Source: Patescibacteria group bacterium (GTDB taxonomy: Bacteria > Patescibacteriota > Microgenomatia > UBA8517). Taken from it: a stretch of DNA of 64,000 nucleotides. How positions within the stretch are numbered: position 1 is the stretch's first letter; each line of letters begins with the position of its first letter. The stretch is from assembly GCA_038062915.1 (NCBI GenBank), contig JBBTWD010000002.1, positions 5,189-69,188 on the forward strand, in the 5' to 3' direction. Made by a program: the position numbers and the translations under genes. Below the pieces are notes generated by a model that had not been told where the DNA came from, did no database searches, and saw only the letters and a list, made by a program, of their open reading frames with translations. This document shows positions 13,667 to 64,000 of the stretch, one piece after another.

Positions 13667-13686
13667 TCCGTGTACTAGTACACGGA
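13667..13686 (+). terminator. Perfect 20-bp palindrome tccgtgtactagtacacgga followed by TTTTT; intrinsic terminator and/or second operator copy
   Basis: Read directly from the sequence; it overlaps the stop codon of the convergent GT4 C-half ORF. Confidence 0.45.
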
Positions 13687-22804: not shown

Positions 22805-23852
22805 CTTCATTATATACATCCAGAGTCATTTTTGCAGTTTTAGTCCAGGAGAAGTCTTTGACACGAGCAAGACCTTTTTTGATAAGGCCCTTGGGGCCAC
22901 GAAGTGCTTTCTCGATCCCGTCTGCAATTGAATTTATATTATATGGATCAACTAAGATTGCCGCATCTCCTGATACTTCAGGCATGGAAGAAAGGTTGGA
23001 AGTAACCACAGGTACACAGCAATTAAAAGCATCAAGTATTGGAATCCCAAAGCCTTCATAAAGTGAAGGAAATACTAAAACTTGAGATCCTGTTAGTAGG
23101 GCAGATAAATCATTATTTTCAATATGACCCAAAAATCTAACTCCCCGCTCATCTTGAAAACTCGTTCCTTTTTTTTCACCAATAATTATTAATTTTAAAT
23201 TTTTTCCGAATTTTGAAAGATGGTAAGCCTCAATTATTCTTTGTGTATTTTTCCAGGGCTTGGTTCCAATCGAAATTATGTAGTCCTCACGAATTCCATA
23301 TTTTGTTTTTATTCTAACTACATCATCACTTGAAGCTTTTATTAGGTTGGGAGCTTCTGGAATAACTCTTATTATATGTTCAGAAAAACCTAAATCAATC
23401 AAATCGTTTTTAGTACTCTCGCTGGGAACGATTATCTTTTTGGATTCTTTAGCTACCCACTCAAGTCTTTTTTTATGAGTAGATATAATAATAGATGGTG
23501 TAAGCTTTGGGAATTTAATGGGGATAATGTCATGAACTGTTGTAACTTTGATAGCACTAGAGGGTGGCTCAGCCCAATCAGAAGTGTGAACTATATCAAC
23601 TCTTCCTATTAACCTTTCAATGGGTAGAATGTGTAATTTGTTCCAAACAATATCTGCTAGAATTGGGGGGATTGGAAAAATTTTTGTTTGAGGAAAAAAA
23701 TTCAAAACATCACGTTTTCTCCTTAATGATCCAGCATAAAGTACGTATTCGTTTTTACCGTCAATTTGAAGCAAACTCTTAACAAGGTTTTCTCGGTAAT
23801 GAGAAACACCTGTTCCATAAACAATCTGACTAATATCAATCGCAATAATCAT
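22794..23852 (-). CDS. GT4 family glycosyltransferase
   Basis: EGFGIPILDAFNCCVPVVTSNLSSMPEV. Confidence 0.85.
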   Translation of the reverse strand: MIIAIDISQIVYGTGVSHYRENLVKSLLQIDGKNEYVLYAGSLRRKRDVLNFFPQTKIFPIPPILADIVWNKLHILPIERLIGRVDIVHTSDWAEPPSSAIKVTTVHDIIPIKFPKLTPSIIISTHKKRLEWVAKESKKIIVPSESTKNDLIDLGFSEHIIRVIPEAPNLIKASSDDVVRIKTKYGIREDYIISIGTKPWKNTQRIIEAYHLSKFGKNLKLIIIGEKKGTSFQDERGVRFLGHIENNDLSALLTGSQVLVFPSLYEGFGIPILDAFNCCVPVVTSNLSSMPEVSGDAAILVDPYNINSIADGIEKALRGPKGLIKKGLARVKDFSWTKTAKMTLDVYNEAKQ

Positions 23853-25210
23853 TTAACTACCATAATTTCTATATTTTCAATTCTTTCTACTGTTTTATAT
23901 TTATCTTCAATATATTTATTAATTTTTGGCATAAAGGAAATAAGTTTGTGACCCTCCACTTCTGATGTTAAATCTCTAATAACTACTCTGGGAGAGTCAC
24001 TAATTACAGCCTCGAGTATTCTATCCTCCACCTCAATCATAAACCAAGGGAACTGAAAAACAAAGATATTACCTGGTGGGAGCCTGTCTGCCAATTGATA
24101 AATATGCGGAAGGGTTCCCAAAGCAAATATCTTTTCATCAGCAGATGATAATCTTTGAATTTCAGCTACAACTTTATTTTCTGAACTACCAAAAAATAAA
24201 ACTCTATCTCCCATATTTCCCCTATAGAATTGAGTTAAAAGAAATATTGAAGTTAAAGCATAAACAGCTATCAACATTTTCAAGTACTTCTTTTTGATAA
24301 GCCGATTAATTGAAATAGCACTCAAAAGTGCAACAAATGGCAAGCTTGGCTGAAGATGAATAAAATCAAATCTTGCATAAATAGAAGCCATGGACCCCAT
24401 TAAAAATATACCAATCAAAATTACATCATTCCTATACTTACCGCTAAAGAGAGAAAAAATGGCAAATCCATAGACTCCAATCACGCGAACCCACTGGCTA
24501 AAAATTCCAAACTTCCTACCCATCTCGGCAAATGTAGTTAGATTAAATGTAATTGTCCAAAATATAAAGTCTTTCCAAACCCCCAAGTTAGTTATATATA
24601 AAGACAAAAAAGTCACAGGTAAAATCACCCCAAACCCAAAAATAACTAACGACCTAAACTTTTTCTCTTTAAATAAAATGTAAATTCCAACTAAAACAAT
24701 TAGAGGCAATATTATTTGTTTAAATAAAAGTGCTAACCCTAAGAAAAATCCTGACCAAAAAACCCTCTTTACTTTAAAGAGGTAAAGCGAAGTAAGTGTA
24801 AAAATAGGTAAAAAGGAATCAATCCAGAGTACCCAGCCTTCAAAATATGGTTGCCAGGTCAGGAAAAAGAGATTGGGGATAAATAACCAGCTTTGCTGTA
24901 AAGATTTGAGATTGGATTTAAAAATTTGTTTTCCGACTAGAAATAAAAGGATGTGGATAATGGCTACAGTTCCATACTGCCAAAGTCTTGCAGATCCCGG
25001 CGTATTCATTCCTAGGCTACCCAAATTAATAGGGAAAAACATAAGCCCCTGGAAATGCTGATCTAATATATCCCTATAGGGAACAAGGCCATGGTTGGTT
25101 AAATAGGGATAAACAAAAAGCTCAGGATAAGGAAGAAAATTAAGTTTACTTAAAATTAAAACATTAGCCAAAATTATTAATATTAAAAAAATCATATTTG
25201 CCTCTCCCAC
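23849..25210 (-). CDS. Polytopic membrane protein, putative GT-C-like glycosyltransferase
   Basis: About 11 TM helices plus an approximately 120-aa C-terminal soluble domain. Confidence 0.4.
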   Translation of the reverse strand: MGEANMIFLILIILANVLILSKLNFLPYPELFVYPYLTNHGLVPYRDILDQHFQGLMFFPINLGSLGMNTPGSARLWQYGTVAIIHILLFLVGKQIFKSNLKSLQQSWLFIPNLFFLTWQPYFEGWVLWIDSFLPIFTLTSLYLFKVKRVFWSGFFLGLALLFKQIILPLIVLVGIYILFKEKKFRSLVIFGFGVILPVTFLSLYITNLGVWKDFIFWTITFNLTTFAEMGRKFGIFSQWVRVIGVYGFAIFSLFSGKYRNDVILIGIFLMGSMASIYARFDFIHLQPSLPFVALLSAISINRLIKKKYLKMLIAVYALTSIFLLTQFYRGNMGDRVLFFGSSENKVVAEIQRLSSADEKIFALGTLPHIYQLADRLPPGNIFVFQFPWFMIEVEDRILEAVISDSPRVVIRDLTSEVEGHKLISFMPKINKYIEDKYKTVERIENIEIMVVK

Positions 25211-26801: not shown

Positions 26802-27494
26802 TCAGTTAATAAATCTATATTTAATTAAAGTCCAGATGGCTTTAAAACCATCTTTCCATGTTATCTTCTTCCCCTCATCATAACCCCTGGGGTTTACTTT
26901 TATGGGAACTTCATAAATTTTATATCCGGCTTTTAAAATTTTTGCTGTGATTTCTGGTTCAAATTCAAATCTATTTGATTCTAACTTAATATTTTTTAGA
27001 ACATCTTTCCTAAAGACCTTATAACCTGTTTCCATATCTGTTAGATTATTGCTGTATAAAATTCTTGTTGCGAAACTTAATAGTTTATTTCCAAAATAAT
27101 GTGTCAAGAATGGCGTATGTTTCTTTCCAAAAATTTTAACAGGGTAATTTTTAAGTCTCGTTCCATAAACTATACTAGCTTCGCCGTTTAAAATTGGTTG
27201 AAGGAGCTTGAGGTAGTCATTTGGATCATATTCCAGATCAGCATCCTGAATGAGAATTATTTCTCCAACGGATTTCTTAATACCAGTTCTAACCGCTGCC
27301 CCCTTACCCAAGTTAACGTTGTGGCGCAAAAGCTTAATTCCCGATAGCTTACTTAAAATTTCAAAGCTATTATCACTTGATGCATCATCAATAACAACAA
27401 TTTCCTTTTGAATCTTTATTTTTTTAACTCTTCGGATAATTTCCTTTATGGTTGCTTCTTCGTTAAAAACGGGGATAACAATTGTTAATATCAC
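26802..27494 (-). CDS. GT2 polyprenyl-phosphate hexose synthase (Dpm1/GtrB/ArnC-like)
   Basis: LTIVIPVFNEEATIKEIIRRV...IVVIDDASSDNS...LIQDADLEYDP. Confidence 0.8.
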   Translation of the reverse strand: MILTIVIPVFNEEATIKEIIRRVKKIKIQKEIVVIDDASSDNSFEILSKLSGIKLLRHNVNLGKGAAVRTGIKKSVGEIILIQDADLEYDPNDYLKLLQPILNGEASIVYGTRLKNYPVKIFGKKHTPFLTHYFGNKLLSFATRILYSNNLTDMETGYKVFRKDVLKNIKLESNRFEFEPEITAKILKAGYKIYEVPIKVNPRGYDEGKKITWKDGFKAIWTLIKYRFIN

Positions 27495-36224: not shown

Positions 36225-36544
36225 TCTTTCTTTAAAATCTGAAACAGTATGATTACAACCAATGTTCCAAAACCAGTACTTGCCGCCATTACAGCCATGT
36301 CGCGTAATTGAAAAATTTCTAATATTGAGGATGATATATAAAAAATCCCTACAGTTAAAAACCAAAAAAACAATTTAATTTTTGGATATTTATATATAAT
36401 AAAAATTAAAACCGTGAATAAACCTGCCTGTATTACTGGCCACAACGGATTAGTCAAAAAACCACTATTTAAAAACCAAAAGAAAGCAAAAACAAATAAA
36501 AGTAAGGCTATAGATTTTATATATTTTAGTATTTTCTTAATCAT
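36221..36544 (-). CDS. Small membrane protein (3 TM helices)
   Basis: ORF between two GT-C-like genes; hydrophobic. Confidence 0.35.
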   Translation of the reverse strand: MIKKILKYIKSIALLLFVFAFFWFLNSGFLTNPLWPVIQAGLFTVLIFIIYKYPKIKLFFWFLTVGIFYISSSILEIFQLRDMAVMAASTGFGTLVVIILFQILKKD

Positions 36545-46161: not shown

Positions 46162-47353
46162 GTTCCAATACCTCCCTTGCTCGCAGGTCCCATGACCAAT
46201 TTTTGCTAATCATCTCTAACGCCTCTTTGCCAATCTTTTCTCTGATTTTATTATTAGATAGCAAATTTAAAATTTCCTTTGCAAATTCATCCAAATCTCC
46301 GATCTTTACTTTGACCATTCCTTTTGGATAATAGGAGGAATATGATTTAAGATCAAAGCCAATACAGGGTATGCCAAATGCCATAGCTTCAGCAGAAGCC
46401 ATACCACCACTATCATAAAGTGCGGGGTGAACTACAATTTTTGACTCTGAAAAAGTTTGATATTTTTTGTCCCCGTCAAAAACATAACCCAAGAGGTCAA
46501 TGTTATCCTCTAATTTTGCGTCTTTAATTTTTGATTTAACATTCTTCATTAATGGACCATCTCCGATCATTACCAGTTTGGCATTTTTATTTTTAACTAC
46601 AACCTTTTTCCAAATTTCTATAATCTCGACAACACCTTTTTGGGGATGGAACCTACCTTGAAAAACCGCATCATACACCTTGGGTAGATTTTTATTTATG
46701 AATTTCCAATTTTCAATCTTTTTTACGTCCACCGCACCAAGAACAACAATAGTTTTACCCTTTTTATCAAGCCCAGGGAACTCTTTTCTTTCTCCCTCGT
46801 TGTTAACTAAAACAAAATCTGAAAATTTGGAAATTATGGGTTTAATAGGAAACTGGCTTAACCAATAGAGAAGTGCTTTAAATCTATATTTCTCTTCTCT
46901 CGCTCCTTCGGCATATCCCCTAAAGGGGTTTGGGGCCGTCTGATACCAAGTTGCAACCCACTTAATATTTGGGTAACGAATTTTCAAAATAAAGCATGGT
47001 AAAGTGTCCATCCAAAAATCAGACGCGCTGTACAATATAGTCTCTTTTTTGTTTTGAAGTTTAATCGATAACCCAAGTCTAATTCCTTCTATAATTCTGG
47101 CAAAATAATTTACTACAAAACCTAGGTCACTCCATGGTTTCATTGAAGAAATTTTAAAAGCTATATTTTTACTTTTTAAATCTTGTCTTTTACACATTTG
47201 GTAACCTTCAGTCCAAAGATAAATATTAATTTTAGACTTTTTACTCCACCGTCTCGCAAATTCTATAAATATCCTGTCACTACCAGAAAGACCTACTCCA
47301 AGGGCCCCCAATGCGAAAATTTTTATATTTTGAGTTTTTATTGCCATGGCCAT
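46148..47353 (-). CDS. GT4 family glycosyltransferase
   Basis: Glycos_transf_1 C-domain with GGMASAEAMAFGIPCIGFD. Confidence 0.8.
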   Translation of the reverse strand: MAMAIKTQNIKIFALGALGVGLSGSDRIFIEFARRWSKKSKINIYLWTEGYQMCKRQDLKSKNIAFKISSMKPWSDLGFVVNYFARIIEGIRLGLSIKLQNKKETILYSASDFWMDTLPCFILKIRYPNIKWVATWYQTAPNPFRGYAEGAREEKYRFKALLYWLSQFPIKPIISKFSDFVLVNNEGERKEFPGLDKKGKTIVVLGAVDVKKIENWKFINKNLPKVYDAVFQGRFHPQKGVVEIIEIWKKVVVKNKNAKLVMIGDGPLMKNVKSKIKDAKLEDNIDLLGYVFDGDKKYQTFSESKIVVHPALYDSGGMASAEAMAFGIPCIGFDLKSYSSYYPKGMVKVKIGDLDEFAKEILNLLSNNKIREKIGKEALEMISKNWSWDLRAREVLEHVKD

Positions 47354-53468: not shown

Positions 53469-54305
53469 TTATTTTTTGAAATATTTACCAACAATATACC
53501 CAATTCCCCCACCCAAAAGTTCAAAAGAAAACATTATAAACATTCCCATGCCCAAAACCGGATGAAAAATAACTTTTTTCCAATTCTTATAAAATACAGG
53601 TCTAAAAAAATATATCGTTTTGGGAGAAAATGGAGAAATGTTTTGTTTTTTTAAATATTTGTGAGCATTAACGGCATAATAATATTTTTTTCTTATTAAA
53701 CTTGCTAAACCCAGTATTTGTTCATTGTGAATTATTTCTGATTTAATTCTTCCAATTTTATATCCCCGTTTTTTTATTGATTCAGCCAAATCCCAATCTT
53801 CGGGGCCTATAATTGCTTCATCAAAACCACCAACTTTTTCAAAAACTGCTCGATTAAAAAATCTTGCCGCATCTGTAATTTGATCTCCAGCGGAATTATA
53901 AAACGATCTCTCGTAAGCTTTAATCTTTTCCCAAAAAGTTTTACCGACTGATTTTTCAGGTATTACAATTCCCCCTATCTTTTTATCTATTTTTATCTCT
54001 TTAACGCAATCTGCAATTACATTGGTTGTTAATTCCATATCGGAGTCAAGAAAAAGAAGAAATTCTCCTTTTGCTTTATTTGCGCCAAAATTTCGCTGGG
54101 TACTTCTTTCCAAATGTTTTCTTGTGTAAACACCTGGGGAATATTTTTTAGCGACTTTTAGCGTATCATCGGTTGAAGCGTCGTCTATAACAATAGTTTC
54201 TATTTTTTTATATTTTTGTTTTGAAATTGAAATTAATAGTTTTTTTATTAAATCGGGGCGATTGTATACCGGGATTATTACAGAAACTAAGGATTTATTT
54301 TTCAT
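53469..54305 (-). CDS. GT2 family glycosyltransferase
   Basis: VSVIIPVYNRPDLIKKLL...IVIDDASTDDT...LFLDSDM. Confidence 0.85.
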   Translation of the reverse strand: MKNKSLVSVIIPVYNRPDLIKKLLISISKQKYKKIETIVIDDASTDDTLKVAKKYSPGVYTRKHLERSTQRNFGANKAKGEFLLFLDSDMELTTNVIADCVKEIKIDKKIGGIVIPEKSVGKTFWEKIKAYERSFYNSAGDQITDAARFFNRAVFEKVGGFDEAIIGPEDWDLAESIKKRGYKIGRIKSEIIHNEQILGLASLIRKKYYYAVNAHKYLKKQNISPFSPKTIYFFRPVFYKNWKKVIFHPVLGMGMFIMFSFELLGGGIGYIVGKYFKK

Positions 54306-54309
54306 ATTT

Positions 54310-55245
54310 TCATTTATTAGCTAAGTACCAATCAATTGTTTTATTAAGTCCCGTTTCAAATGACATCTTTGATTCAAAACCAAACTCACGCCTTGCACGA
54401 GTTGTGTCTAACTTTCGTCTGGGCTGGCCATCAGGTTTTGTTTTATCCCAAACAATCTTACCTTTAAATCCAATTAGCCTTTTTATGGTTTTTGCCAAGT
54501 CTTTGACCGAAATTTCAAAACCAGCCCCTAAATTTACAGGCTCTGATTTATTATATTTTTCTGTTGCAAGTAAAATTCCATTAACAACATCGTCTATAAA
54601 TAAAAATTCTCGAGTTGCTTCTCCAGTCCCCCAAACTACAACTTCCTTCTTATTATTTTCTTTGGCTTCTAAAAATTTACGTATTAATGCGGGTATGACG
54701 TGAGAAGAGGCTAAATCAAAATTTTCCCCAGGACCATATAAATTTACAGGTAAAAGAAAAATGGCATTAAATCCATATTGTTGCCTATAGGTCTGGGCTT
54801 GAACCAACTGCATTAATTTAGCAAGACCATAGGGTGCATTGGTTTCTTCTGGATAGCCCTGCCACAAACTTTCCTCTTTAAAGGGAATCTGTGTAAATTT
54901 GGGATACGAACAAATCGTACCTATCGCTACAAACTTTTTAACACCAGCTAAACGCGCGGCTTTCATCATATTTACACCCATTAAAATATTGTCTTCAAAC
55001 AAATCCGCGGGAAATTCCCTATTAAATCCGATTCCTCCAACTTTGGCGGCTAAATGTATAACAATATCTTGATTTTTACAGACCTTTAGGCATGTTTTAA
55101 AATTCCTAAGATCATTTTTTGAATTTTTGGTAACTGAAATATCAACACCCTCAATATCCTTCAATTTTAATACCAAATGTTTCCCAACAAATCCGGATGC
55201 GCCAGTCACAAGTACCTTTTTGTTTCTCCAGAAACCTTTATTCAT
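54310..55245 (-). CDS. fcl: GDP-L-fucose synthase (GDP-4-keto-6-deoxymannose 3,5-epimerase/4-reductase)
   Basis: Matches E. coli Fcl blocks: LAAKVGGI..N..FPADF, VNLYGPGENFDLASSHVIPALIRKF, VVWGTGEATREFLFIDD, KPDGQPRRKLDTTRA. Confidence 0.8.
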   Translation of the reverse strand: MNKGFWRNKKVLVTGASGFVGKHLVLKLKDIEGVDISVTKNSKNDLRNFKTCLKVCKNQDIVIHLAAKVGGIGFNREFPADLFEDNILMGVNMMKAARLAGVKKFVAIGTICSYPKFTQIPFKEESLWQGYPEETNAPYGLAKLMQLVQAQTYRQQYGFNAIFLLPVNLYGPGENFDLASSHVIPALIRKFLEAKENNKKEVVVWGTGEATREFLFIDDVVNGILLATEKYNKSEPVNLGAGFEISVKDLAKTIKRLIGFKGKIVWDKTKPDGQPRRKLDTTRARREFGFESKMSFETGLNKTIDWYLANK

Positions 55246-57011
55246 TTTTGTTTAATAATACTTTTTCGTATTTCTTGAGTTATATCTAATAAATCTCCGT
55301 TTTTAGTAAACTTGAAAGCAAAAACTTGATTTAAGCTAATTTTTTCTTGAGGATAACCAAGACGTAAAAAGGCTTTACCGTCTGTGACTGTTGAAACTAC
55401 TTCAGTGTAAATATTTGTAAATGTCGGTATTAGACTTGCATCTTTAATTTTATACTCCAAAGCCATTCGAGGGGGGAAGCCAAAAAGAATGGTGTTGTTT
55501 GCAAGGCCTGGATTTTCCTTGTCATCAAAATAAAAGACAAGCAATTTATTTGGATATTCCCTTGGTAAATATCTAAATAGTTTACTCCACATTAAGTCAG
55601 TTACCGCTACGTTCCTCGTAGCGTAGAGGTTGTTCATATATTTTCTATCGTTTTTAATGTTAAAAGTGAGCATCGTTAATAAAATAACTGTTGTTAAAAA
55701 AGCAACTCTTATATTGATTTTTGAGGCGATTACAAGAAGTGAGGAAAGTGTTATTGCTACCCCTGCCAAACTTAATGTTAAATATCGGCCATCAGAACCC
55801 ATAATCGCTCCGGGATTAAAAACTAATGGTACGATAAATGATGTGAGTATAAGAATTGGCCCAGAAGCCATGCCGACCCATTCAATGTTTTTTTTCTCTA
55901 ACTTTGATATAAAAAGGATATATATAGCCCAAATAAGAAAAGTGATAAAAAATATTCCGATAAAAGTATTTATTAAGATTAAATACATTCCTTGATCGTG
56001 TGGGAATTGCTTGAACACAAAAAAAGTAAGCGTAAAATTGGTAATCAAAATTAATAGTATAAAAAGATAGTTTTTTAGTTTTTGGATAGTTATGCTTGAA
56101 AATATAAAAAATATTATTGATTCAACGATGAGGCCAATTGCGATAAACCACTTATACCAATTAGCCCCAATAAGTAGCGTGATAGATCCAAGATTAGGAG
56201 TAAATAGATCCGGCAAAAAAGCTTTACCTAGATTGGTTATAAAGGCGCTAATAAAAGTGTAGTCCCCCGTCTGAAACATACGAGTAATTACCGTTAAGTT
56301 GATAATATTTGTTGCATGCACTTCGCCAAAAAAACCCATTCTATAAACTGCAAGTGCAGACAATGACAGACAAATCTGTCTAATCAATGTTGTTTTAAGG
56401 GTAGCCTGGGCTATCGCCACTGCAAAAATAAAATCAAAAAATAATACAAACGGTAAAAGACCGTGACTTCTAATTGGATTGACTGCCAAGCTTACTGCAA
56501 ATAAAACACAACCAATGGCAAACTTCCAATAAGTACCTTTGAAGGAACCTATCAGAAAAGTCAGAGAGATAAATAAAAACAAGGTTACCAAATAAACATT
56601 CATATGAAGTACATAGTTGGAGGATTCAATACCGCTATATCCAATTGCGATAAATAAACTTCCAATTAACGCAGCCGCCTTAGATTTGATAAATTTGGAT
56701 AAAAATATATATCCTGCAAATGCAGTCAATACCCTTAAGCCCATGGAAACAAGAAAGTATCCATAACTAGCATACTCAAAAAAATGTCGAATAATAATCA
56801 AGCAAAGATTCATCACTCCCCACGGTTGGGTATAACCGCTCAAGGAAAAGAAGGGAAACTGATTTCCAGGACCATAATGCTTATCAATTACATAAAACAT
56901 GAACCAATCGTCACCAAAAAGTGAAAATTGGAGCGATTTACCAAAAGCAATGTAAATTAATAACGAAAATAATAATGTAACTGATAAATAGATAAACAAT
57001 TTAATCTTCAT
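55242..57011 (-). CDS. Polytopic membrane protein, GT-C-like glycosyltransferase
   Basis: About 13 TM helices; DDW in the first loop; about 130-aa C-terminal soluble domain. Confidence 0.4.
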   Translation of the reverse strand: MKIKLFIYLSVTLLFSLLIYIAFGKSLQFSLFGDDWFMFYVIDKHYGPGNQFPFFSLSGYTQPWGVMNLCLIIIRHFFEYASYGYFLVSMGLRVLTAFAGYIFLSKFIKSKAAALIGSLFIAIGYSGIESSNYVLHMNVYLVTLFLFISLTFLIGSFKGTYWKFAIGCVLFAVSLAVNPIRSHGLLPFVLFFDFIFAVAIAQATLKTTLIRQICLSLSALAVYRMGFFGEVHATNIINLTVITRMFQTGDYTFISAFITNLGKAFLPDLFTPNLGSITLLIGANWYKWFIAIGLIVESIIFFIFSSITIQKLKNYLFILLILITNFTLTFFVFKQFPHDQGMYLILINTFIGIFFITFLIWAIYILFISKLEKKNIEWVGMASGPILILTSFIVPLVFNPGAIMGSDGRYLTLSLAGVAITLSSLLVIASKINIRVAFLTTVILLTMLTFNIKNDRKYMNNLYATRNVAVTDLMWSKLFRYLPREYPNKLLVFYFDDKENPGLANNTILFGFPPRMALEYKIKDASLIPTFTNIYTEVVSTVTDGKAFLRLGYPQEKISLNQVFAFKFTKNGDLLDITQEIRKSIIKQK

Positions 57012-58054
57012 TTTATAATTCTATATAAAACATCAAAAAACCAGCTTTGAATAGGATGTGGAGATCGGGAATTTATAACCTTCCAGCTTTTTGGGATCGG
57101 GTAATTTTCTTTCCTAATGAATTGATTGTCTGAAACTCTTGATCTTATCCACTGTTTTGTGTAAAAAAAACTTTTTGTTATTCTTTCTATCTCTTGAAGA
57201 TAATTTTTTATTTGAGGCCTTCTCATCTCATGTAGAGAGCTAATATTGACTATCAAATCAACATAATTTTTGGGCAACAAATGTATTTGATTGGCCATTA
57301 AAAATCGTATTCTACTAGCCTTAAATTCTTTCTCAATTTTATTAAATGATTCAAATTTTCTGTAATAAAAAATCTTTTCGTTAGGAAAAACTTTAGATAA
57401 GTACCACTGTGACACAAAAAGAGCTGGGGGGATGTCTATCACGGTATAATTTATTTTTCTCATAAACTTAAGAAATATATATGCCGTTCTACCATATCCT
57501 GCACCCAATTCAGCAACTTCCTTCACTGTATTTTTGTCAATTTGATCCATAATGGTGTAAAACTCATACACAGAATTGCAAAGATCTTGTGAAATAGTTT
57601 TACCTTTATAAAATATGGTAAAGGGATTGCCGACAGTCGGTTCTTTAATTTTTTCAAAAATATTTAAGTGATCAAATTTAGAAACAAAATCAAATAAACA
57701 CGCGACATAAATTTTATAAAAATAGGCAAAAATTGGATGAAACTTTTTTATTCCGTCTTGCTTTTGAGCAAAATCATTAAATTCAACTGAAGTAAACGGC
57801 TTTAGGTTAACTTTTAAAATCTGTGAGACTATAACAGGAAATTCATGAATATAGATTCCAAAAATATTCCAGCCAAAACCAAAATATTTTCCATTTATAG
57901 ACCGCTTAAAATTCTTAAGGCCCGATTTATTAATTTGATTATTATGCACCATATTAAGACCTTCCCAAAAACTAGATGGGTGAAAGATTTTAGGGCTAGA
58001 TTTTAAATCACTTAACATTTCGTTTAAACCTATGCCTTTTAGCTTGTCATTCAT
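57008..58054 (-). CDS. Putative sugar O-methyltransferase (class I SAM-MTase)
   Basis: N-terminal FHPSSFWE; motif I VAELGAGYGRTAY; size and pattern recalled from the 'putative sugar O-methyltransferase' family. Confidence 0.45.
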   Translation of the reverse strand: MNDKLKGIGLNEMLSDLKSSPKIFHPSSFWEGLNMVHNNQINKSGLKNFKRSINGKYFGFGWNIFGIYIHEFPVIVSQILKVNLKPFTSVEFNDFAQKQDGIKKFHPIFAYFYKIYVACLFDFVSKFDHLNIFEKIKEPTVGNPFTIFYKGKTISQDLCNSVYEFYTIMDQIDKNTVKEVAELGAGYGRTAYIFLKFMRKINYTVIDIPPALFVSQWYLSKVFPNEKIFYYRKFESFNKIEKEFKASRIRFLMANQIHLLPKNYVDLIVNISSLHEMRRPQIKNYLQEIERITKSFFYTKQWIRSRVSDNQFIRKENYPIPKSWKVINSRSPHPIQSWFFDVLYRIIK

Positions 58055-58083
58055 TAGTAGTATAATAACACAGCCTTCTTAAG

Positions 58084-58842
58084 ATGCCCAAAATGATGAA
58101 TAGAAACAAAAAAATATTTGCAATACTAATTTCGTATAACGCCGAAAAGACCTTGGAAAAATTTTATAAAAACTTTCCTAAACATTTATTTAGTAAGATC
58201 ATTCTAGTTGATGATGCATCGCATGATAGAACTTACTATCTAGCCAAAAAACTTGGCATCAAATCATATCGAAATCCGAAAAATTTAGGCTATGGTGGAA
58301 ATATGAAAAGGGCAATGTCTATTGGCCTTAAATTGGGCGGAGATGTTTTGGTTGATATCCACCCAGATGGAGAATATAAGCCATCTGCAATAGTACCCGC
58401 ATTAAAAAAGATTGAGAAGGGTGCTTTACTTGTATTGGGTAACAGATTCCATTCATCTAATGATCCCCTCAAAAGCGGTATGTATGTTTGGAAATATTTT
58501 CCCATTAAAATCTTGAATTTTATTAGCCGGCTAATTCTAGGATTAAAAATCAATGATTATCATCAAGGATTTAGGGTCTATACCAGAGAATTGCTGAATA
58601 AAATTAATTATGGGGATGATTCGACTGGATTCCTTTTTAGTTTTGAATTAATAGCTCAAGCTGCATTTTGGAAAATTTCAGTAGCACAGGTTCCTGTTGA
58701 TACAAAATATACGGGTAAAAAAAGAGGTGCTACTCTTAAAAAGAGTATCGCTTACTCTTTAGAAATCTTTTGGGTATTACTACTTTATATACTTGCTAAA
58801 ATCGGACTAAAAAATAAAATATTCCTCAAACCAAACTCTTAA
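58084..58842 (+). CDS. GT2 polyprenyl-phosphate hexose synthase-like (Dpm1/GtrB-like)
   Basis: FAILISYNAEKTLEKF...ILVDDASHDRT...C-terminal TM helix. Confidence 0.7.
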   Translation: MPKMMNRNKKIFAILISYNAEKTLEKFYKNFPKHLFSKIILVDDASHDRTYYLAKKLGIKSYRNPKNLGYGGNMKRAMSIGLKLGGDVLVDIHPDGEYKPSAIVPALKKIEKGALLVLGNRFHSSNDPLKSGMYVWKYFPIKILNFISRLILGLKINDYHQGFRVYTRELLNKINYGDDSTGFLFSFELIAQAAFWKISVAQVPVDTKYTGKKRGATLKKSIAYSLEIFWVLLLYILAKIGLKNKIFLKPNS

Positions 58843-59950
58843 TTAAAATTAAACTCTGTCTTATTGATTTTCCCCAGGTAAACTTCTTACTCCAGGAAAT
58901 TGCATTTTTTGACATCCTTTCCCAAGATTTGGAATCTTTGCATAATTTTATTGCATTTTCCGCCAAGCTTTTAAAGTCCCCCAATGGAGACAGTAAACCA
59001 GTTTTTTCATTAACCACAGAGTCCTTGATACCAGAAACAAGGTAACCAATCGCTGGGGTACCAACAGAATTTGCCTCAATGTTAACTAGTCCCCATCCTT
59101 CTCTTATCGAGGGATTTATAAAAACATGGGCGCCAGATAAAAGTTCAAACTTTTTTTTGTCATTAACATATCCCCAAAATTTTATATCTTCACTTATATT
59201 TAATTTATTACTAATGGTTTTAAGTTCAGTTAAATAATTTTTAGTCCCCCAGCCCACTACCCAAAACTGCCATCCAGCTTCTTTAATGTTTATTAAACTA
59301 AAGGCCTTGAGGGCATCTTCTATCCCCTTATCTTTTGCTAGGGCACCTAAAAAAATGGCCGTTTTTCTTGTCTGCCTATTTCGATCAACTTTGATTGGAT
59401 TGACACCGTTATAAACTATCTTTATATTCTCTTTTGGCACACCCCAATTTACTAAATCTGTTTTTGTTGACTCGGAAACTGTCATAAATGGAATGTTTTT
59501 ATATAAAAAATTAAACATTATTGGTTCAAAAACAGTGCCAATAATTCCTGGTATATAATTTAATGGCCTTGGCCAAGGGTTAAACCACCAAACTTCTTTA
59601 GCCACTTCGTGAATAAGGGCAAGTTTTTTTGTCCTTACATAGATTGGAGTAAAAAATGGAATCCCATGAAATTCATCGACAACTAAATCATATTTGGGAT
59701 GTTTGTTAAATAAATACCAATAAAACGCTTTAATTTTAACCCCAAAGACATCTCCCCCTTTTCGTATTATTTCGACGCCATCAATAAACTCAGTTTCTTT
59801 CGCATTCTTAAAATACGATGTGAAGAGTGTAACTTTATTACCAGCCTTAACCCACCCTTTTGCATGCTCAAAGGTGGCAATTTCAGCGCCACCAGACAAG
59901 GGATGTTTTAGTCCCCTCCATGAAAATATTAAAATCTTTAGTTTTCTCAT
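58826..59950 (-). CDS. GT4 family glycosyltransferase
   Basis: REGWGLVNIEANSVGTPAIGYLVSGIKD. Confidence 0.85.
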   Translation of the reverse strand: MRKLKILIFSWRGLKHPLSGGAEIATFEHAKGWVKAGNKVTLFTSYFKNAKETEFIDGVEIIRKGGDVFGVKIKAFYWYLFNKHPKYDLVVDEFHGIPFFTPIYVRTKKLALIHEVAKEVWWFNPWPRPLNYIPGIIGTVFEPIMFNFLYKNIPFMTVSESTKTDLVNWGVPKENIKIVYNGVNPIKVDRNRQTRKTAIFLGALAKDKGIEDALKAFSLINIKEAGWQFWVVGWGTKNYLTELKTISNKLNISEDIKFWGYVNDKKKFELLSGAHVFINPSIREGWGLVNIEANSVGTPAIGYLVSGIKDSVVNEKTGLLSPLGDFKSLAENAIKLCKDSKSWERMSKNAISWSKKFTWGKSIRQSLILIKSLV

Positions 59951-59969
59951 GTCCCTTAATAATTCCTAA

Positions 59970-59977
59970 TGTATAAT
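59970..59977 (+). promoter_or_regulatory. Candidate -10 element TGTATAAT 18 nt upstream of the 59995 ATG
   Basis: Hexamer TATAAT with an upstream TG, read directly from the sequence; no clear -35. Confidence 0.3.
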
Positions 59978-59994
59978 AGCCTAGATAACAGTAA

Positions 59995-61752
59995 ATGAAA
60001 AATTTTCTTTCTGCAAACAGGGCATGGATTCTTGTTTTAGCGCTTGCCTTTCTTTTGCGGACTATTGGGATACATCTAAATCCAGTTGGCCTAAGCCACG
60101 ATGACGAGCTTAATGAATTAATCAACGCTAAATCACTTGCCATAGCCGGAGTTCACGCTCCTGGCCATGTAGCAGGAGTATTTACTCCTAACGATGAATG
60201 CCCGGGTAACTGTATTCACGGAGAACTGGGTCCATTTATTCTTATTCCTTGGATGAGAATTTTTCCCCTAGATATATTTTGGTCAAAAATACCATTCATT
60301 GCAGTAGCGTCGCTTATCGTTTTCTCAACTGGTAAACTCTTCGAAAATCTATCTAAAAATCGCGCTATTGGTCTATTTGTAGGTACTCTTGTCGCAATCA
60401 ATCCATGGGCAATACACTTTGGAAGAACTGCCTATTTTACAACATTTTCATATGCTTTTTATCTTTTAGCTGCATATTTTTTTACACGGAAAAAGTCCTA
60501 TAGGGCCAATCTTTTTTACGGCGCATTGCTCTCCATAATTGCCTCTCTTTTCTACTTTGGTACCAAACCAATCCTTCCATTAATTATTATCTGGGGGATT
60601 TGCTACAATCTTTTCCAATTTAAAAAACATTATCTAAAGTTTACGGCTTTAATTATTTCCCTGACTTTAATTGCAATTGTTACATACTCCATAATACTTT
60701 CAAATTCATTTGCTGGAAGACGTATTGGTGAAATAAATATCGAAAATACAGCAACAATTGTAAACCAACAAAGGCGAGTCTCACTTGAAATTCCGTTAGT
60801 AAGGGATTTATTTATCAATAAATATATTGTGCATGTCGGGATTAGAATTGAGAAATTTATTGGTTTTTTCTCGCCAACATTTTTATATGTAAAAAGCGAA
60901 GGTAGTACTGATCTTTATTATGATTCTAACCACGCTTATAATTATTTAGCCGATTTTGCATTTTTGATATTTGGGGTAATGGCACTTGCCACCAGCTTTC
61001 CAACCGCCATTTTTGTATTGTCCCTGCTTTTAATATCGGTCGTCCCCGCCGCCATAAAGATTACGGGAGATACTATTTACACACTTCGAGCTGGGCTTGC
61101 ATATCCAATACTGACAGGAGTTTCTGGCTGGGGAATCTATTATCTATTTATAAAGTTTTCTGGCTGGTCAAGAAAAATAGTTATCTTTGTGATTATCCTA
61201 ATTTACACCGTCTCACTTAGTTACTTCTTAACTATGTATTGGTATAGAACCCCATTTGATAAAAGTATGGGCTGGTATTTTCATAAGCGGGCAGTGGCAA
61301 ATTACATTACAAGAATTAGAGAAAAAAGTGATAAAAAAATAATAGTTGTTACAGCCCAACCCGCCGACACCTTTAATGAGTATGTATTTTTTGGCGATCT
61401 TTATAACACCAAGGCTGATATTTTAGATGTTAATAAGGTCTATGATTCACAAAAATACGAATATAAAAATACCAAATTTGTAAATAACTGTGATGAACTT
61501 ACCCAAAAAGAAATAATAAGTGGATCGATCATTTTCATCGAACAAGGCGTTGACTGTCTTATTAATCAAAAGGGTACTGCAAAAATTGCAAATCCAAGGG
61601 ATGGAGGGGGAATATATGATATTGTTAATGAAAATCTGTGTGCCGGCTATCCTAAAGCAAGATTTCCTTATCCTCGAAAAATTTCTGACTTCAGTATCGA
61701 AAGATTATCCGACAGCGAGTTTTGCAAACTGTGGATCACTAACCCCGATTAA
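59995..61752 (+). CDS. GT-C glycosyltransferase, PMT/ArnT (GT39/GT83)-like
   Basis: About 12 TM helices; LSHDDELNEL acidic motif in the first extracytoplasmic loop; about 150-aa C-terminal soluble domain. Confidence 0.5.
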   Translation: MKNFLSANRAWILVLALAFLLRTIGIHLNPVGLSHDDELNELINAKSLAIAGVHAPGHVAGVFTPNDECPGNCIHGELGPFILIPWMRIFPLDIFWSKIPFIAVASLIVFSTGKLFENLSKNRAIGLFVGTLVAINPWAIHFGRTAYFTTFSYAFYLLAAYFFTRKKSYRANLFYGALLSIIASLFYFGTKPILPLIIIWGICYNLFQFKKHYLKFTALIISLTLIAIVTYSIILSNSFAGRRIGEINIENTATIVNQQRRVSLEIPLVRDLFINKYIVHVGIRIEKFIGFFSPTFLYVKSEGSTDLYYDSNHAYNYLADFAFLIFGVMALATSFPTAIFVLSLLLISVVPAAIKITGDTIYTLRAGLAYPILTGVSGWGIYYLFIKFSGWSRKIVIFVIILIYTVSLSYFLTMYWYRTPFDKSMGWYFHKRAVANYITRIREKSDKKIIVVTAQPADTFNEYVFFGDLYNTKADILDVNKVYDSQKYEYKNTKFVNNCDELTQKEIISGSIIFIEQGVDCLINQKGTAKIANPRDGGGIYDIVNENLCAGYPKARFPYPRKISDFSIERLSDSEFCKLWITNPD

Positions 61753-62539
61753 TCCAGTTTTTTTTGTTCGAATAACTGTAAAAGCGCAATATTTTGAGTC
61801 TATAAAAAACTGCTAGAGTGTCGATAAATGTAAACCAGATTGTTCTTACAAACCCTTTATTGATAATGGTAGATGTACCAAAATCCATTTTTAGTTCTAT
61901 TGGGGCCTCAAATATTCTACCAAAACCCAGGGACCTGGCAACAGAAAGCATTTCTATATCAAAAGCAAATTCTTTGACGAGAAGTCTCGGTAAAATTTTT
62001 TCTACGACCTCTCTTCTAAAAAATTTCATACCCACTTGAGTGTCTCTCACATTCAACCCAAAAAGAACCTTGACCATTATTTGATAGCCAAAGGACAAAA
62101 TTTTTCTTTGCCACGGGTAAACGACTTTAGAGGCGGGATGTCTCTTTGAACCGATGATAATATCTGCGCCGTACCACTCAAAATGTTCTAGAAGCATTGA
62201 GATACTGTTTGGGTCAATATCAAGACCTTCATCTACAAAACCCACAATCTGCCCCTTGGCTTTCGACATACCAAACCTAACAGCCTCTCCCTTGCCACGA
62301 TTTTGTAGGTAGCCAACAATTCTAATTTGTTTAGGAAATCTCCTAGCTATCTTATTGGCTTTTTTAAATGTTCCGTCAACCTCGATACCGTCTATAACAC
62401 AAATAATTTCATAATTGTACCTTATCTCATCTAAAACTTTCTTGATCTTAAGAAGACTCTTGGCAATAGATTTTTCTGCCCTATAGGCTGGAATTACGAT
62501 TGAGACTACTTTTACTAAAGTTGTAGGTTTCATATCCAA
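61739..62539 (-). CDS. GT2 polyprenyl-phosphate hexose synthase-like (Dpm1/GtrB-like)
   Basis: VVSIVIPAYRAEKSI...IICVIDGIEVDGT...GFVDEGLDIDP. Confidence 0.75.
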   Translation of the reverse strand: MDMKPTTLVKVVSIVIPAYRAEKSIAKSLLKIKKVLDEIRYNYEIICVIDGIEVDGTFKKANKIARRFPKQIRIVGYLQNRGKGEAVRFGMSKAKGQIVGFVDEGLDIDPNSISMLLEHFEWYGADIIIGSKRHPASKVVYPWQRKILSFGYQIMVKVLFGLNVRDTQVGMKFFRREVVEKILPRLLVKEFAFDIEMLSVARSLGFGRIFEAPIELKMDFGTSTIINKGFVRTIWFTFIDTLAVFYRLKILRFYSYSNKKNWINRG

Positions 62540-63761
62540 AGTATATTAACAAACTAACTAGCAAAAGAATAGCTGAAAGCAAGGAAACTTTAATTATAGT
62601 AAGTATAGAATCATGAAAGATAAAAATTCCAATTATCTGAAAAATTGAGAAAATAAGCGGTAAAATTACAACCTTTACTTTATTTATAGACAGGTAAAAT
62701 GAACAAATTAAACTAGTTAGACTATAAATTGCAGCGAAAAGACCAAACCAAATTAGATATTTATCTCCCCCCAAAAATCCATTGCCATAAAGTGTTTTTA
62801 TAGCAACGTCTGGTAAAAACTTATAAAAAACCAGTACAACTATTGAAGCTACAAAAGTCAAAAGTAAACTAACAAAAAAAATGCCCAAATACTTTTGACC
62901 CCTTGAGAATTTTTTTGATATCATGGGAAACATAACGGCACCGATTGGAGCAGTTCCAAAAAGTATTATTCTGCCCAATGTCGAAAGTGAAGCATATATA
63001 CCAGCATCATGTGGACCAATAAAATGTTTTGCCAATAGAATATCTGTGGTTAAAAACGATGTTGAGGTTAATGAAAAAATAAAAGCCGGTAATGTGTATG
63101 AAAATATTTCTCTGTTAATGTTAATTTTTTTATCTTTGGAAAAAAATGTATAACCCTTCAAAAAATATAGAGTAATAAAAAAACCAATTATTCCAGAAAT
63201 AACTATTCCCAAAACTGCGCCAAAAACAGAAAATCCTAAATAAACCAAAAGTACTCCCAAAATTAATCTTAATAGCAATTCAACATTTAAAGAAACCACC
63301 ATTTGATTAAATTTTAAGATACCTTGAAGAAACGCTCTTAAAACTAAAGATAGCAATGAGAAAAATAAAAAAAACGGAACTACGAATATGCTTTTCAGTT
63401 CGACGTTCAAAAATCTAGAAAATACAGGTGAGAGAATTAAAGTTAAAACAAGAAGGGTGGAAGCTATTGCAAAACTTTTTCGGTTAAACCAAGAGAAAAT
63501 GTAATTTTCTTCGTTTTTACTTTTAGCACTAGACGCAAACTTTATAACTACCATGCTTAAAAATGTAAATATTGCAGAGAACATGGTGGCCAGTGAAATT
63601 ACCGCAGCAAGTTCCCCATAATGAATGGGTCCCAAGAGCCTTCCTATGATAAGGTGGTAAACAAATGCCAAAAAGTTAGCAAAATTACTGCCTATTACCA
63701 TGACTGCGCTACTTGTAAAAAATGGATGGGAGGTTATGTATTTAATTTTTTTCATCATCAT
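62481..63761 (-). CDS. wzx: Wzx-type flippase (MOP superfamily), second copy
   Basis: About 12 TM helices; Polysacc_synt-like N-terminus; overlaps the downstream GT2 by 59 nt. Confidence 0.7.
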   Translation of the reverse strand: MMMKKIKYITSHPFFTSSAVMVIGSNFANFLAFVYHLIIGRLLGPIHYGELAAVISLATMFSAIFTFLSMVVIKFASSAKSKNEENYIFSWFNRKSFAIASTLLVLTLILSPVFSRFLNVELKSIFVVPFFLFFSLLSLVLRAFLQGILKFNQMVVSLNVELLLRLILGVLLVYLGFSVFGAVLGIVISGIIGFFITLYFLKGYTFFSKDKKININREIFSYTLPAFIFSLTSTSFLTTDILLAKHFIGPHDAGIYASLSTLGRIILFGTAPIGAVMFPMISKKFSRGQKYLGIFFVSLLLTFVASIVVLVFYKFLPDVAIKTLYGNGFLGGDKYLIWFGLFAAIYSLTSLICSFYLSINKVKVVILPLIFSIFQIIGIFIFHDSILTIIKVSLLSAILLLVSLLIYFGYETYNFSKSSLNRNSSL

Positions 63762-63776
63762 ATGTAAAAACGCATA

Positions 63777-64000
63777 TCAAGCAACCCAATAGCCCCTAAT
63801 AAAAAGCATTTCTAATAAAATACCCAACATTGCTGAAAAAAGAATAGCAGGCCGCAGGTATTTCTTATATTGTCTAATTAAATGGGGAAAAAGTAGAAAA
63901 ATTGAGATTAAAACATATCTAGGCATTGAGGAAAATGTCCCTGTGAATGTTGGTAGTAAAAGTGCACCAATTGAAAAAACCCAGTAACTTAATCTCATTT
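63777..64000 (-). CDS. Membrane protein, C-terminal fragment (5' part probably upstream of the window)
   Basis: Hydrophobic 73-aa ORF ending at 63777; the reading frame is open to the window edge. Confidence 0.3.
   Translation of the reverse strand, partial: MRLSYWVFSIGALLLPTFTGTFSSMPRYVLISIFLLFPHLIRQYKKYLRPAILFSAMLGILLEMLFIRGYWVA

Follow-up and report, generated by a model that had tools for sequence, protein, structure and literature searches.

Dpm1-like GT2 genes in a cell-surface glycan island

The window, the whole stretch of 64,000 nucleotides analysed here, is part of a ~55-kb cell-surface glycan island in a Microgenomates-type Patescibacteria (CPR) genome. The host is an uncultivated ultrasmall Patescibacteria bacterium. 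The 51 genes of the island include at least nine GT-C-like genes, and 11 GT2 genes lie in the window, three of them Dpm1-like. The island also encodes a Bac_transf priming enzyme, ManC (GDP-mannose), Wzy_C, a second Wzx and an LCP ligase, a set that suits a polymer of the wall or cell surface with decorations added outside. A preliminary description had paired the three Dpm1-like GT2 genes with polytopic GT-C genes lying directly beside them. Every ORF it named was found at the coordinates given (Table 1). Of the adjacency, only that of GT2_2 and GT-C_A stands, although the two are convergent; GT2_1 is one gene away from both GT-C_A and GT-C_B, and GT2_3 is two genes away from GT-C_C.

Table 1 Features discussed in the text, with positions in the window.
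Feature	Coordinates	Strand	Length	Description
GT-C_C	23849..25210	-	453 aa	Polytopic PMT_2/GT39-like GT-C
GT2_3	26802..27494	-	230 aa	Most canonical Dpm1-like GT2
Second Wzx	30834-32105			Very different from the Wzx at 62481-63761
Small ORF	36224-36544			4 TM helices
GT2 (40721 type)	40721-42250			Contains a GT2 part
GT2 (53469 type)	53469-54305			
GT-C_B	55242..57011	-	589 aa	Polytopic GT-C glycosyltransferase, C-terminal alpha/beta domain
O-methyltransferase	57008..58054	-		Putative sugar O-methyltransferase, NanM-type (TIGR04371 3e-43, 148 bits, cut-off 44)
GT2_1	58084..58842	+	252 aa	Dpm1-like GT2, C-terminal hydrophobic helix 222-240
GT4	58826..59950	-		GT4 glycosyltransferase (PF00534 1.4e-33)
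GT-C_A	59995..61752	+	585 aa	~11 TM helices, remote relative of PMT_2
GT2_2	61739..62539	-	266 aa	Dpm1/GtrB-like, conserved amphipathic C-terminus
Wzx	62481..63761	-	426 aa	Wzx/MOP-type polytopic flippase candidate (PF01943 2.6e-20, PF13440 3e-11)
PF04188 GT-C	63777..64000	-		Mannosyl_trans2, PIG-V-like; 3' end, gene extends beyond the window

All three GT2s match PF00535 in Pfam, with E-values of 2e-17 (GT2_1), 1e-23 (GT2_2) and 6e-34 (GT2_3). In the PDB, each is most similar in sequence to the P. furiosus Dol-P-Man synthase (DPMS, 5mlz), at 2.7e-7, 1e-13 and 2.9e-17, respectively. This is the sole PDB match of GT2_1 (residues 7-205), and the alignment with GT2_3 covers residues 3-224. GtrB sll0501 and ArnC are the next PDB matches of GT2_2 (3e-10 and 2e-6) and of GT2_3. 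A joint profile of the three GT2s matches DPMS at 2.5e-28, GtrB at 1.6e-22 and ArnC at ~1e-18, and these families fill the top seven sequences, with the ArnC E-value just marginally ahead of the next, unrelated GT2. Two control GT2s matched chondroitin synthase or 5tze instead, and the top NCBIfam match is a polyprenyl-P family in none of the eight other GT2s of the window. The Dpm1-like character proposed for the three GT2s is thus borne out by sequence matches, and only these three of the 11 window GT2s resemble polyprenyl-phosphate glycosyltransferases across the whole catalytic domain.

The top NCBIfam matches are PpgS, AglJ and Dol-P-hexose transferase for GT2_1 (all far under cut-off), PgfS and ArnC for GT2_2 (both weak), and AglJ (8e-37) and PpgS (2e-25) for GT2_3. 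Since the best scores of 60, 49 and 127 bits are far under the cut-offs of 325-529 bits for these equivalogs, none of the three GT2s is orthologous to a named enzyme. They are mutual closest paralogues at 27-30% identity and share the motifs N.GKG, D..(Q/T)G.K/R, F.(F/S).E and E.P. At the DXD position, GT2_3 has the canonical DAD of polyprenyl-P GT2s, from which the D-x-G of GT2_2 (6/6 aligned orthologues) and the H-P-D of the GT2_1 family (3/3) depart; each variant is kept within its own family, which argues against decay. The C-terminus of GT2_1 has one predicted TM helix, whereas those of GT2_2 and GT2_3 are amphipathic only, and GT2_3 also carries an R..G.K-type C-terminal motif. No GacJ/DPM3-like partner for the GT2s was identified. 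Comparison with orthologues suggests that the true start of GT2_2 is the ATG at 62533.

Three polytopic GT-C families

The preliminary description had expected PF13231 or PF02366 to identify the GT-C proteins. Neither profile matches GT-C_A, GT-C_B or GT-C_C, even at E<10. All three are nevertheless GT-Cs, as claimed, on the evidence of AlphaFold models and fold matches for GT-C_A and GT-C_B and of PF13231 in orthologues of GT-C_C. Acidic residues in the first extracytoplasmic loop after TM1 are conserved in all three families. Profile-profile comparison among the families is weak (probability 18-51%), and the oligosaccharyltransferase motif WWDxG occurs in none of their 32, 23 and 24 aligned members.

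The loop LSHDDELNEL noted earlier in GT-C_A occupies residues 33-42, directly after TM1, and its D37 and E38 are invariant among the 32 family members. The C-terminal extracytoplasmic domain of GT-C_A contains four nearly invariant cysteines. The top fold matches of its AlphaFold model are all GT-C, with ALG12 as the closest structure and with equal TM-scores of ~0.46 for ArnT and PglB. Its only sequence link is to PMT_2/PMT, and its remote relatives P0080 and P0081 pass PF13231.

GT-C_B has no Pfam or NCBIfam match and belongs to a family without a Pfam model; unlike GT-C_A and GT-C_C, which have indirect links, it has no link to PF13231 or PF02366. Its AF2 model (pLDDT 85.5) finds only GT-C structures among the top 10 Foldseek PDB matches (STT3 at 4.4e-4, ArnT, DPY19). 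G33-D34-D35 directly after TM1 is invariant, and the family comprises 1504 representative clusters (E<=1e-3). The protein is identical (100%) to NCBI AAB535_00330, which is labelled 'hypothetical protein'. For GT-C_C, 402 homologues were found; among those listed at 42-70% identity, ~60% carry PF13231, and E30 and D50 in loop 1 are invariant. Some of the homologues are named 'glycosyltransferase family 39'.

Conserved gene neighbourhoods

Within the window, GT2 and GT-C genes are not significantly closer than expected by chance (permutation p=0.38; 9 GT-C-like among 51 island genes), because the 55-kb island has at least nine GT-C-like genes. Comparative synteny supports a coupling of GT2 and GT-C genes, but with pairs other than those first proposed.

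The closeness of GT2_1 to GT-C_A is not conserved, and the conserved partner of GT2_1 is GT-C_B. The two genes adjoin divergently, with or without the O-methyltransferase, in three orthologous loci of 47-72% identity, and they lie on opposite strands in L007, L008, JGI ct0L7kEc and L015. The GT2_1 orthologues opposite GT-C_B in L007 and L008 are 61-64% identical, and JGI ct0L7kEc has a putative 248-aa GT2 at the equivalent place. In the window, the O-methyltransferase lies between GT2_1 and GT-C_B and is transcribed the same way as GT-C_B. GT2_1 is divergent from this methyltransferase/GT-C_B unit, with 29 bp separating its start codon from that of the methyltransferase, and an orthologue of the methyltransferase is found at the equivalent position in L007 and L015. 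Among distant GT2_1 homologues on unrelated metagenome contigs, polytopic neighbours are enriched (26% vs 7%, odds ratio 4.6, p=2e-6); three of the 10 neighbours tested match PMT/PMT_2, two of them passing the gathering score and the third weakly.

The GT-C_B family also occurs in natural fusions: in five representative proteins of ~880-900 aa, a GT-C_B-family domain follows a GT2 at the N-terminus. One of these GT2s shares 43% identity with the 53469 gene product, the other four share 43-51% with the GT2 portion of the 40721 product, and none has detectable identity to GT2_1. Since these fusions carry non-Dpm1 GT2 types, it is not secure that GT2_1 alone makes the donor for GT-C_B. In L008 and JGI ct0L7kEc, the gene immediately downstream of GT-C_B encodes a GT2 whose Pfam profile is that of the 53469 gene.

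GT-C_A adjoins GT2_2 in the window, but a true GT-C_A orthologue lies within two genes of GT2_2 in just 3/80 species. GT-C_A orthologues often stand alone or adjoin a methyltransferase, and two are set amid unrelated genes. The conserved neighbours of GT2_2 are different. The Wzx gene is directly upstream of GT2_2 on the same strand in 71/80 species, and in the window its 3' end overlaps the GT2_2 5' end. A PF04188 GT-C is found at most three genes upstream of GT2_2 in 53/75 species loci, as the first gene of a GT-C - Wzx - GT2_2 cassette. The fragment at the end of the window is 63-66% identical to the C-termini of the L004 and L007 PF04188 proteins (tblastn). The GT4 gene also belongs to the conserved module, with an orthologue no more than two genes downstream of GT2_2 in 64/79 species loci. 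Thus, a GT2, a flippase candidate and a GT-C are all encoded with conserved linkage. That the window lacks a GtrA was confirmed, the only small 4-TM ORF in a TM scan having no Pfam match. Because GtrA is absent from the window, the Wzx-like protein is the flippase candidate, which is accordingly of the Wzx type and not of the GtrA type.

GT-C_C shares an operon with GT2_3 and lies two genes downstream of it. GT2_3 orthologues of 55-64% identity hold the equivalent operon position in L010 and L011, and the operon MTase-GT2_3-GT4-GT2-PMT_2 recurs in Woesebacteria and Daviesbacteria. The comparisons above show which families and folds the proteins belong to, that the acidic loop motifs are conserved and that gene order is retained.

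A lipid-phosphate-sugar model, its alternatives and known systems

We propose, with moderate confidence, that the three GT2s make lipid-P-sugars that are flipped and then used by external GT-C enzymes. On the cytoplasmic side, the Dpm1/GtrB-like GT2s would charge polyprenyl (undecaprenyl) phosphate with one sugar residue taken from a nucleotide sugar. Flipping of this lipid-P-sugar would follow; the window offers just one candidate for that step, the Wzx/MOP-type protein whose gene overlaps GT2_2. On the outer side, GT-C enzymes would take the sugar from the flipped donor and attach it to a glycopolymer or a protein. In the best-supported arrangement, one module would comprise GT2_1, the NanM-type O-methyltransferase and GT-C_B; another the PF04188-type GT-C, Wzx and GT2_2, with GT-C_A as an additional or lineage-specific consumer; and a third GT2_3 and the PMT_2-like GT-C_C. 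We infer what the lipid and final acceptors and the sugar are, that a flipping step takes place, and how GT-Cs and donors are matched. The general reading of the preliminary description, a donor system of Dpm1/GtrB-like GT2s and GT-Cs, is therefore retained on the strength of homology with controls, fold and synteny, while its pairings are corrected. The excess of at least nine GT-C-like genes over just three Dpm1-like GT2s in the window counts against the model, as do the NCBIfam scores under cut-off, the narrow lead of ArnC in the joint profile, the DXD variants of GT2_1 and GT2_2, the lack of a TM helix in GT2_2 and GT2_3 and of any identified GacJ/DPM3-like partner, the chance-level proximity in the window, the frequent isolation of GT-C_A orthologues and the non-Dpm1 GT2 domains of the GT-C_B fusions.

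Wzx proteins classically flip Und-PP-oligosaccharides, and the three GT2s could instead be ordinary cytoplasmic extenders of an Und-PP repeat unit primed by Bac_transf and flipped as an oligosaccharide by Wzx. The GT-Cs would then be independent, acting as polymerases, ligases or transferases on other donors, and the neighbourhood would merely be a shared island. The full Wzx/Wzy-type toolkit of the island (Bac_transf, two Wzx, Wzy_C, LCP) is in keeping with this, as are the non-significant closeness of GT2 and GT-C genes in the window, the NCBIfam scores far under cut-offs, the non-canonical DXD in 2/3 GT2s and the frequent separation of GT-C_A from any GT2. However, just these three GT2s, and not the eight others, best match DPMS/GtrB/ArnC from end to end of the catalytic domain, polytopic/PMT_2 neighbours are enriched around GT2_1-family genes in unrelated metagenome contigs, and the second, very different Wzx is available for the repeat unit; we consider this explanation unlikely.

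The GT-C_B fusions raise another possibility, which we regard as somewhat less likely still: the partner of GT-C_B would be a membrane-anchored GT2 of the 53469 or 40721 type, making a lipid-linked donor or preparing the acceptor, and GT2_1 would serve another GT-C. The five fusions and, in two loci, the GT2 downstream of GT-C_B that shares the Pfam profile of the 53469 gene speak for it. Yet each of the close orthologous loci examined has a GT2_1 orthologue next to GT-C_B, neither the 53469 nor the 40721 type resembles known polyprenyl-P transferases, and a fusion indicates a shared pathway rather than a donor-consumer relation. The least probable reading is that GT-C_A and/or GT-C_B are oligosaccharyltransferase-like and move a Wzx-flipped Und-PP glycan en bloc onto proteins, for instance S-layer or pilin subunits, given that WWDxG occurs in no member of the three families, that the sequence link of GT-C_A is solely to PMT_2/PMT and that ArnT and PglB score equally as its fold matches.

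The GT2/flippase/GT-C logic of the model is already known, and the genes here are a further example of a known system type. One known counterpart combines Dpm1/DPMS with Dol-P-Man-dependent GT-Cs (PMT, PIG-V/GT76, ALG3/9/12) or, in mycobacteria, Ppm1 with PimE/PMT. Archaeal DPMS is the best match of all three GT2s, GT-C_A is nearest to ALG12, a PIG-V-like PF04188 GT-C heads the cassette and ManC is in the island. The single C-terminal TM helix of GT2_1 resembles that of yeast Dpm1. On the other hand, identity is low, 2/3 GT2s have no DAD, and the lipid here would be a bacterial polyprenol. The ArnC/ArnT system (Und-P-L-Ara4FN synthase and lipid A transferase) likewise combines a GT2 with a PMT_2-type GT-C, and ArnC and ArnT are among the top PDB and fold matches, respectively, but the ArnA, B, D, E and F genes, including an ArnE/F-type flippase, are absent. 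CPR bacteria are generally considered monoderm and without lipid A.

In the O-antigen glucosylation system GtrA/GtrB/Gtr(type) and the Gram-positive systems CsbB/GtcA/YfhO, GtlA/GtlB and CsdAB-CflA, Und-P-hexose is synthesised by a GT2 and moved by a flippase before a GT-C transfers the sugar on the outside; the GT2 gene is often next to the GT-C gene, and several pairs can share one flippase (PMC8035078). Their GT2s have two C-terminal TM helices, whereas those described here have one (GT2_1) or none (GT2_2, GT2_3). The window has no gene for a GtrA-family protein, and the GT-C families are not Gtr-type or YfhO. The closer precedent for the GT2_2 cassette is GacI/GacJ/GacK/GacL of Streptococcus pyogenes, which adds GlcNAc as a side chain to the group A carbohydrate; its polysaccharide cluster encodes a GtrB-like GT2 without a TM helix, a candidate flippase of the Wzx type and a polytopic GT-C (PMC8035078; bioRxiv 10.1101/180810). 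The Wzx-type GacK is the proposed flippase (PMC8035078). The composition matches, and both pathways include an LCP ligase and a priming transferase. The systems differ in that no GacJ/DUF2304-like small partner was found here and that the GT-C is PF04188-type and/or of the unclassified GT-C_A family, not GacL-like. The host here is a CPR bacterium, and the cassette has overlapping Wzx and GT2 genes whose linkage is kept in 71/80 species.

It is tempting to speculate, although we consider this doubtful, that in Microgenomates-type CPR the Wzx/MOP protein whose gene overlaps that of a TM-less Dpm1-like GT2 is a dedicated polyprenyl-monophosphate sugar flippase. If so, the GT-C/Wzx/GT2_2 cassette would unite transferase, flippase and synthase in one small unit that is complete in itself and supplies a remarkably large GT-C set (at least nine in 55 kb), which includes the GT-C_A and GT-C_B families without a Pfam model.

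Gene content of the surface-glycan island

Annotation of nearly all ORFs with Pfam and NCBIfam models shows that ~8.4–64 kb of the window (G+C ~34%) is a single very large surface-glycan island. It encodes a DUF4012 protein, a Bac_transf priming transferase, ManC, many GT4 and 11 GT2 glycosyltransferases, several methyltransferases, RmlD-like reductases, Fcl, AsnB, a Wzy_C protein, two Wzx-type proteins and at least nine GT-C-like polytopic proteins. This density of GT-C genes, at least nine per 55 kb, is unusually high. Window proteins are 100% identical to AAB535_00330 and AAB535_00350, both annotated as "hypothetical protein" in a Patescibacteria MAG, and relatives were found in Woesebacteria, Daviesbacteria, Levybacteria and Amesbacteria. 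A promoter and terminator scan of 54–64 kb gave fewer sites than shuffled sequences and was uninformative. In each of two neighbouring GT4 genes, the N-domain (Glyco_transf_4) and the C-domain (Glycos_transf_1) lie on separate, overlapping ORFs; frameshifts, errors in the assembly or true two-polypeptide GT-B enzymes may explain this.

Positions of the features discussed in the text
Feature	Position	Strand	Remarks
LCP ligase	5017–6033		just upstream of the island
Split GT4	12092–13182	−	Glyco_transf_4 12628–13182, Glycos_transf_1 12092–12640; 13-nt overlap
Second split GT4	13675–14698	−	Glyco_transf_4 14180–14698, Glycos_transf_1 13675–14187; 8-nt overlap
GT-C-like	16773–18140		weak PMT_2 match (3.8e-4); related to GT-C_C
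GT-C_C	23849–25210	−	polytopic
GT2 abutting GT-C_C	25192–25893	−	SunS-like or Glyco_tranf_2_4-type
GT2_3	26802–27494	−	Dpm1-like
Second cassette	29989–34777	−	GT2 29989–30864, Wzx-type 30834–32105, polytopic 32066–34777
GT-C-like of second cassette	32066–34777	−	903 aa, polytopic; weak relation to AftD-like GT-Cs
GT-C-like	34779–36224		FSHDDFFHF just after TM1; no family match
Small ORF	36224–36544	−	107 aa, four predicted TM helices
GT-C-like (AftD-like)	36537–40070		PF11847 GT-C_AftD (6e-17) and DUF5667
GT-C-like	47338–49239		paralogue of 36537–40070 (33% identity over 564 aa, 2e-70)
GT-C_B	55242–57011	−	polytopic
O-methyltransferase	57008–58054	−	NanM-type
GT2_1	58084–58842	+	Dpm1-like
GT4	58826–59950	−
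GT-C_A	59995–61752	+	polytopic
GT2_2	61739–62539	−	Dpm1-like
Wzx-type protein	62481–63761	−	gene overlaps GT2_2
PF04188-type GT-C, C-terminus	63777–64000	−	last 224 bases of the window

Three Dpm1-like GT2s and three GT-C families

All ORFs named in the preliminary description are present, and the Dpm1-like class it gave to GT2_1, GT2_2 and GT2_3 is borne out by PDB-sequence matches and a joint profile, both with control GT2s. The best PDB-sequence match of each is the Dol-P-Man synthase (DPMS) of P. furiosus, spanning the entire catalytic domain. The next matches of GT2_2 and GT2_3 are GtrB and ArnC; GT2_1 matches DPMS alone. A joint profile of the three families and their orthologues ranks DPMS (2.5e-28), GtrB (1.6e-22) and ArnC (~1e-18) highest, whereas two other window GT2s match chondroitin synthase or 5tze instead. 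The top NCBIfam matches are PpgS, AglJ and Dol-P-hexose transferase for GT2_1 and GT2_3 and PgfS and ArnC for GT2_2, all scoring far under the equivalog cut-offs; a polyprenyl-P transferase family is the top match of none of the eight other window GT2s. The three are mutually closest paralogues. Only GT2_3 carries the canonical DAD at the DXD position; every GT2_2 orthologue has D-x-G there, and every GT2_1 orthologue H-P-D. A TM helix is predicted for GT2_1 alone among the three.

The polytopic proteins are less readily placed. Assignment of GT-C_A to PF13231/PF02366 had been proposed as a check and fails as stated: GT-C_A, GT-C_B and GT-C_C all lack a match even at E<10. Searches of the PDB with the GT-C_A sequence and its family profile returned nothing, or chance bromodomain matches. 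By sequence, GT-C_B links to none of the known families; the predicted model (pLDDT 85.5) matches GT-C enzymes, and G33-D34-D35 after TM1 is invariant. The GT-C_B profile finds 1504 representative clusters, which makes it a large unannotated GT-C family. Most GT-C_C homologues (42–70% identical) contain PF13231, and some carry GT39 in their names. Profile–profile comparison among the three families gave only weak matches (probability 18–51%), so sequence does not justify uniting them in a single family. Since the WWDxG motif of oligosaccharyltransferases is absent from all three, an oligosaccharyltransferase role was rejected as the main explanation.

Partner genes inferred from synteny

With nine GT-C-like genes among 51 island genes, the chance that three random genes lie equally close to a GT-C is 38%. 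Pairing therefore cannot be judged inside the window, and synteny was used instead. The resulting picture upholds a coupling of Dpm1-like GT2 and GT-C genes in kind and corrects the specific adjoining pairs first proposed.

For GT2_2, we surveyed the neighbourhoods in 80 species-level genomes. The gene immediately upstream, on the same strand, is Wzx-type in 71/80 species, a PF04188 (Mannosyl_trans2) GT-C lies at most three genes upstream in 53/75, and an orthologue of the GT4 between GT2_1 and GT-C_A follows GT2_2 in 64/79. The PF04188-type C-terminus at the right end indicates that this conserved GT-C–Wzx–GT2_2 cassette is present here and cut by the window edge. True GT-C_A orthologues lie within two genes of GT2_2 in only 3/80 species and can occur among unrelated genes; GT-C_A was accordingly rejected as an obligate partner of GT2_2. 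Upstream of the Wzx–GT2_2 pair (loci L013–L092), 45 of the 80 species have PMT_2-like GT-C genes, one to three in tandem; mapped loci run from these through a small GT2 and a GT4 to the PF04188 GT-C, and here the tandem genes would be expected just past the right end of the window. At 15 loci, the place of GT-C_A after GT2_2 is taken by a protein of ~675 aa that has a signal-like segment at its N-terminus and only two predicted TM segments.

GT2_1 is instead associated with GT-C_B. Orthologues of GT-C_B at 72%, 50% and 47% identity all have a 248–260-aa GT2 immediately upstream on the opposite strand, sometimes with a NanM-type methyltransferase between; the GT2s of L007 and L008 are 61–64% identical to GT2_1, and GT-C_A is absent from the three loci. 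Among distant GT2_1 homologues (33–40% identity, unrelated metagenome contigs), 34/131 adjacent genes encode polytopic proteins (at least six TM helices and 400 aa), versus 15/213 genes at least three positions away (odds ratio 4.6, p=2e-6). Ten such neighbours were tested: two exceed the gathering score of PMT or PMT_2, one has a weak PMT_2 match and TPR repeats, and a fourth has TPR repeats only.

Natural fusions also occur in the GT-C_B family (P0303, P0318, P0327, P0332, P0333, P0372). Five representative proteins carry an N-terminal GT2; in the sixth, an NAD-dependent epimerase is fused with the family's C-terminal part. The fused GT2 domains resemble the GT2 at 53469–54305 or the GT2 part of 40721–42250, not GT2_1. 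Such non-Dpm1 GT2s are either further suppliers of GT-C_B or enzymes that work on the acceptor. At L009, six tandem genes for ~580–640-aa proteins without Pfam domains, one a 28% identical relative of GT-C_B, have a single GT2 nearby.

GT2_3 belongs to an operon, MTase–GT2_3–GT4–GT2–GT-C_C–GT4, that is syntenic in Woesebacteria and Daviesbacteria. The GT2 directly abutting GT-C_C is unlike GT2_3 and is an alternative partner of GT-C_C. Its homologues (34–67% identity) lie directly beside PMT/PMT_2 genes in L004, L006, L010 and L011, a second recurrent GT2/GT-C pairing; this GT2 type is not known to make lipid-P-sugars.

Proposed glycosylation modules and candidate flippase

Multi-component transmembrane glycosylation modules are the best-supported reading, which we hold with moderate confidence. 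The Dpm1-like GT2s would make polyprenyl-P-sugars on the inner face, a flippase would translocate them, and GT-C enzymes would use them to glycosylate a surface polymer or protein; we infer the sugar and its acceptor, and likewise which donor serves which GT-C. With three Dpm1-like GT2s versus at least nine GT-C-like proteins in the island, donors must be shared or come from elsewhere. The reported lack of a GtrA-type protein in the window holds, and the Wzx-type protein overlapping GT2_2 is a candidate flippase. Together with GT2_2 and a GT-C, it corresponds to the variant proposed in S. pyogenes, with the cytoplasmic GT2 GacI, the Wzx-type flippase GacK and the GT-C GacL (PMC8035078; 10.1101/180810). 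CflA of L. lactis was dropped as a Wzx-type precedent, being GtrA-type according to a review.

The preliminary description was largely right in observation and right in kind in interpretation, with its pairings now corrected and a flippase candidate added. The system is of a known kind, of which this is an uncharacterised member including two GT-C families without a Pfam model. Our literature search found no experimental study of any Patescibacteria surface glycan pathway and no CPR-specific description of such glycosylation systems. Patescibacteria live attached to host cells, and surface glycans are therefore likely central to their lifestyle. Judging from this locus, they probably use a Gram-positive-style scheme of lipid-P-sugar synthase, flippase and outside-acting GT-C, and do so very extensively. 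The analysis gives a fold and a likely role to two widespread families annotated as "hypothetical protein". The tight conservation of the Wzx–GT2 overlap provides genetic access to the unsettled question of which proteins flip polyprenyl-monophosphate sugars. Otherwise, the system is of an expected kind.

The gene order PF04188 GT-C–Wzx–GT2_2 is matched by a second cassette, in which all genes overlap; its GT2 is SunS-like, not Dpm1-like, and its Wzx, unrelated to the first, could serve an Und-PP-linked repeat unit. The small ORF at 36224–36544 was rejected as a GtrA or GacJ analogue, having no family match (no Pfam match at E≤1) and not lying near any Dpm1-like GT2. It directly follows the AftD-like GT-C gene, overlapping its end, and could encode a small membrane-bound accessory subunit.
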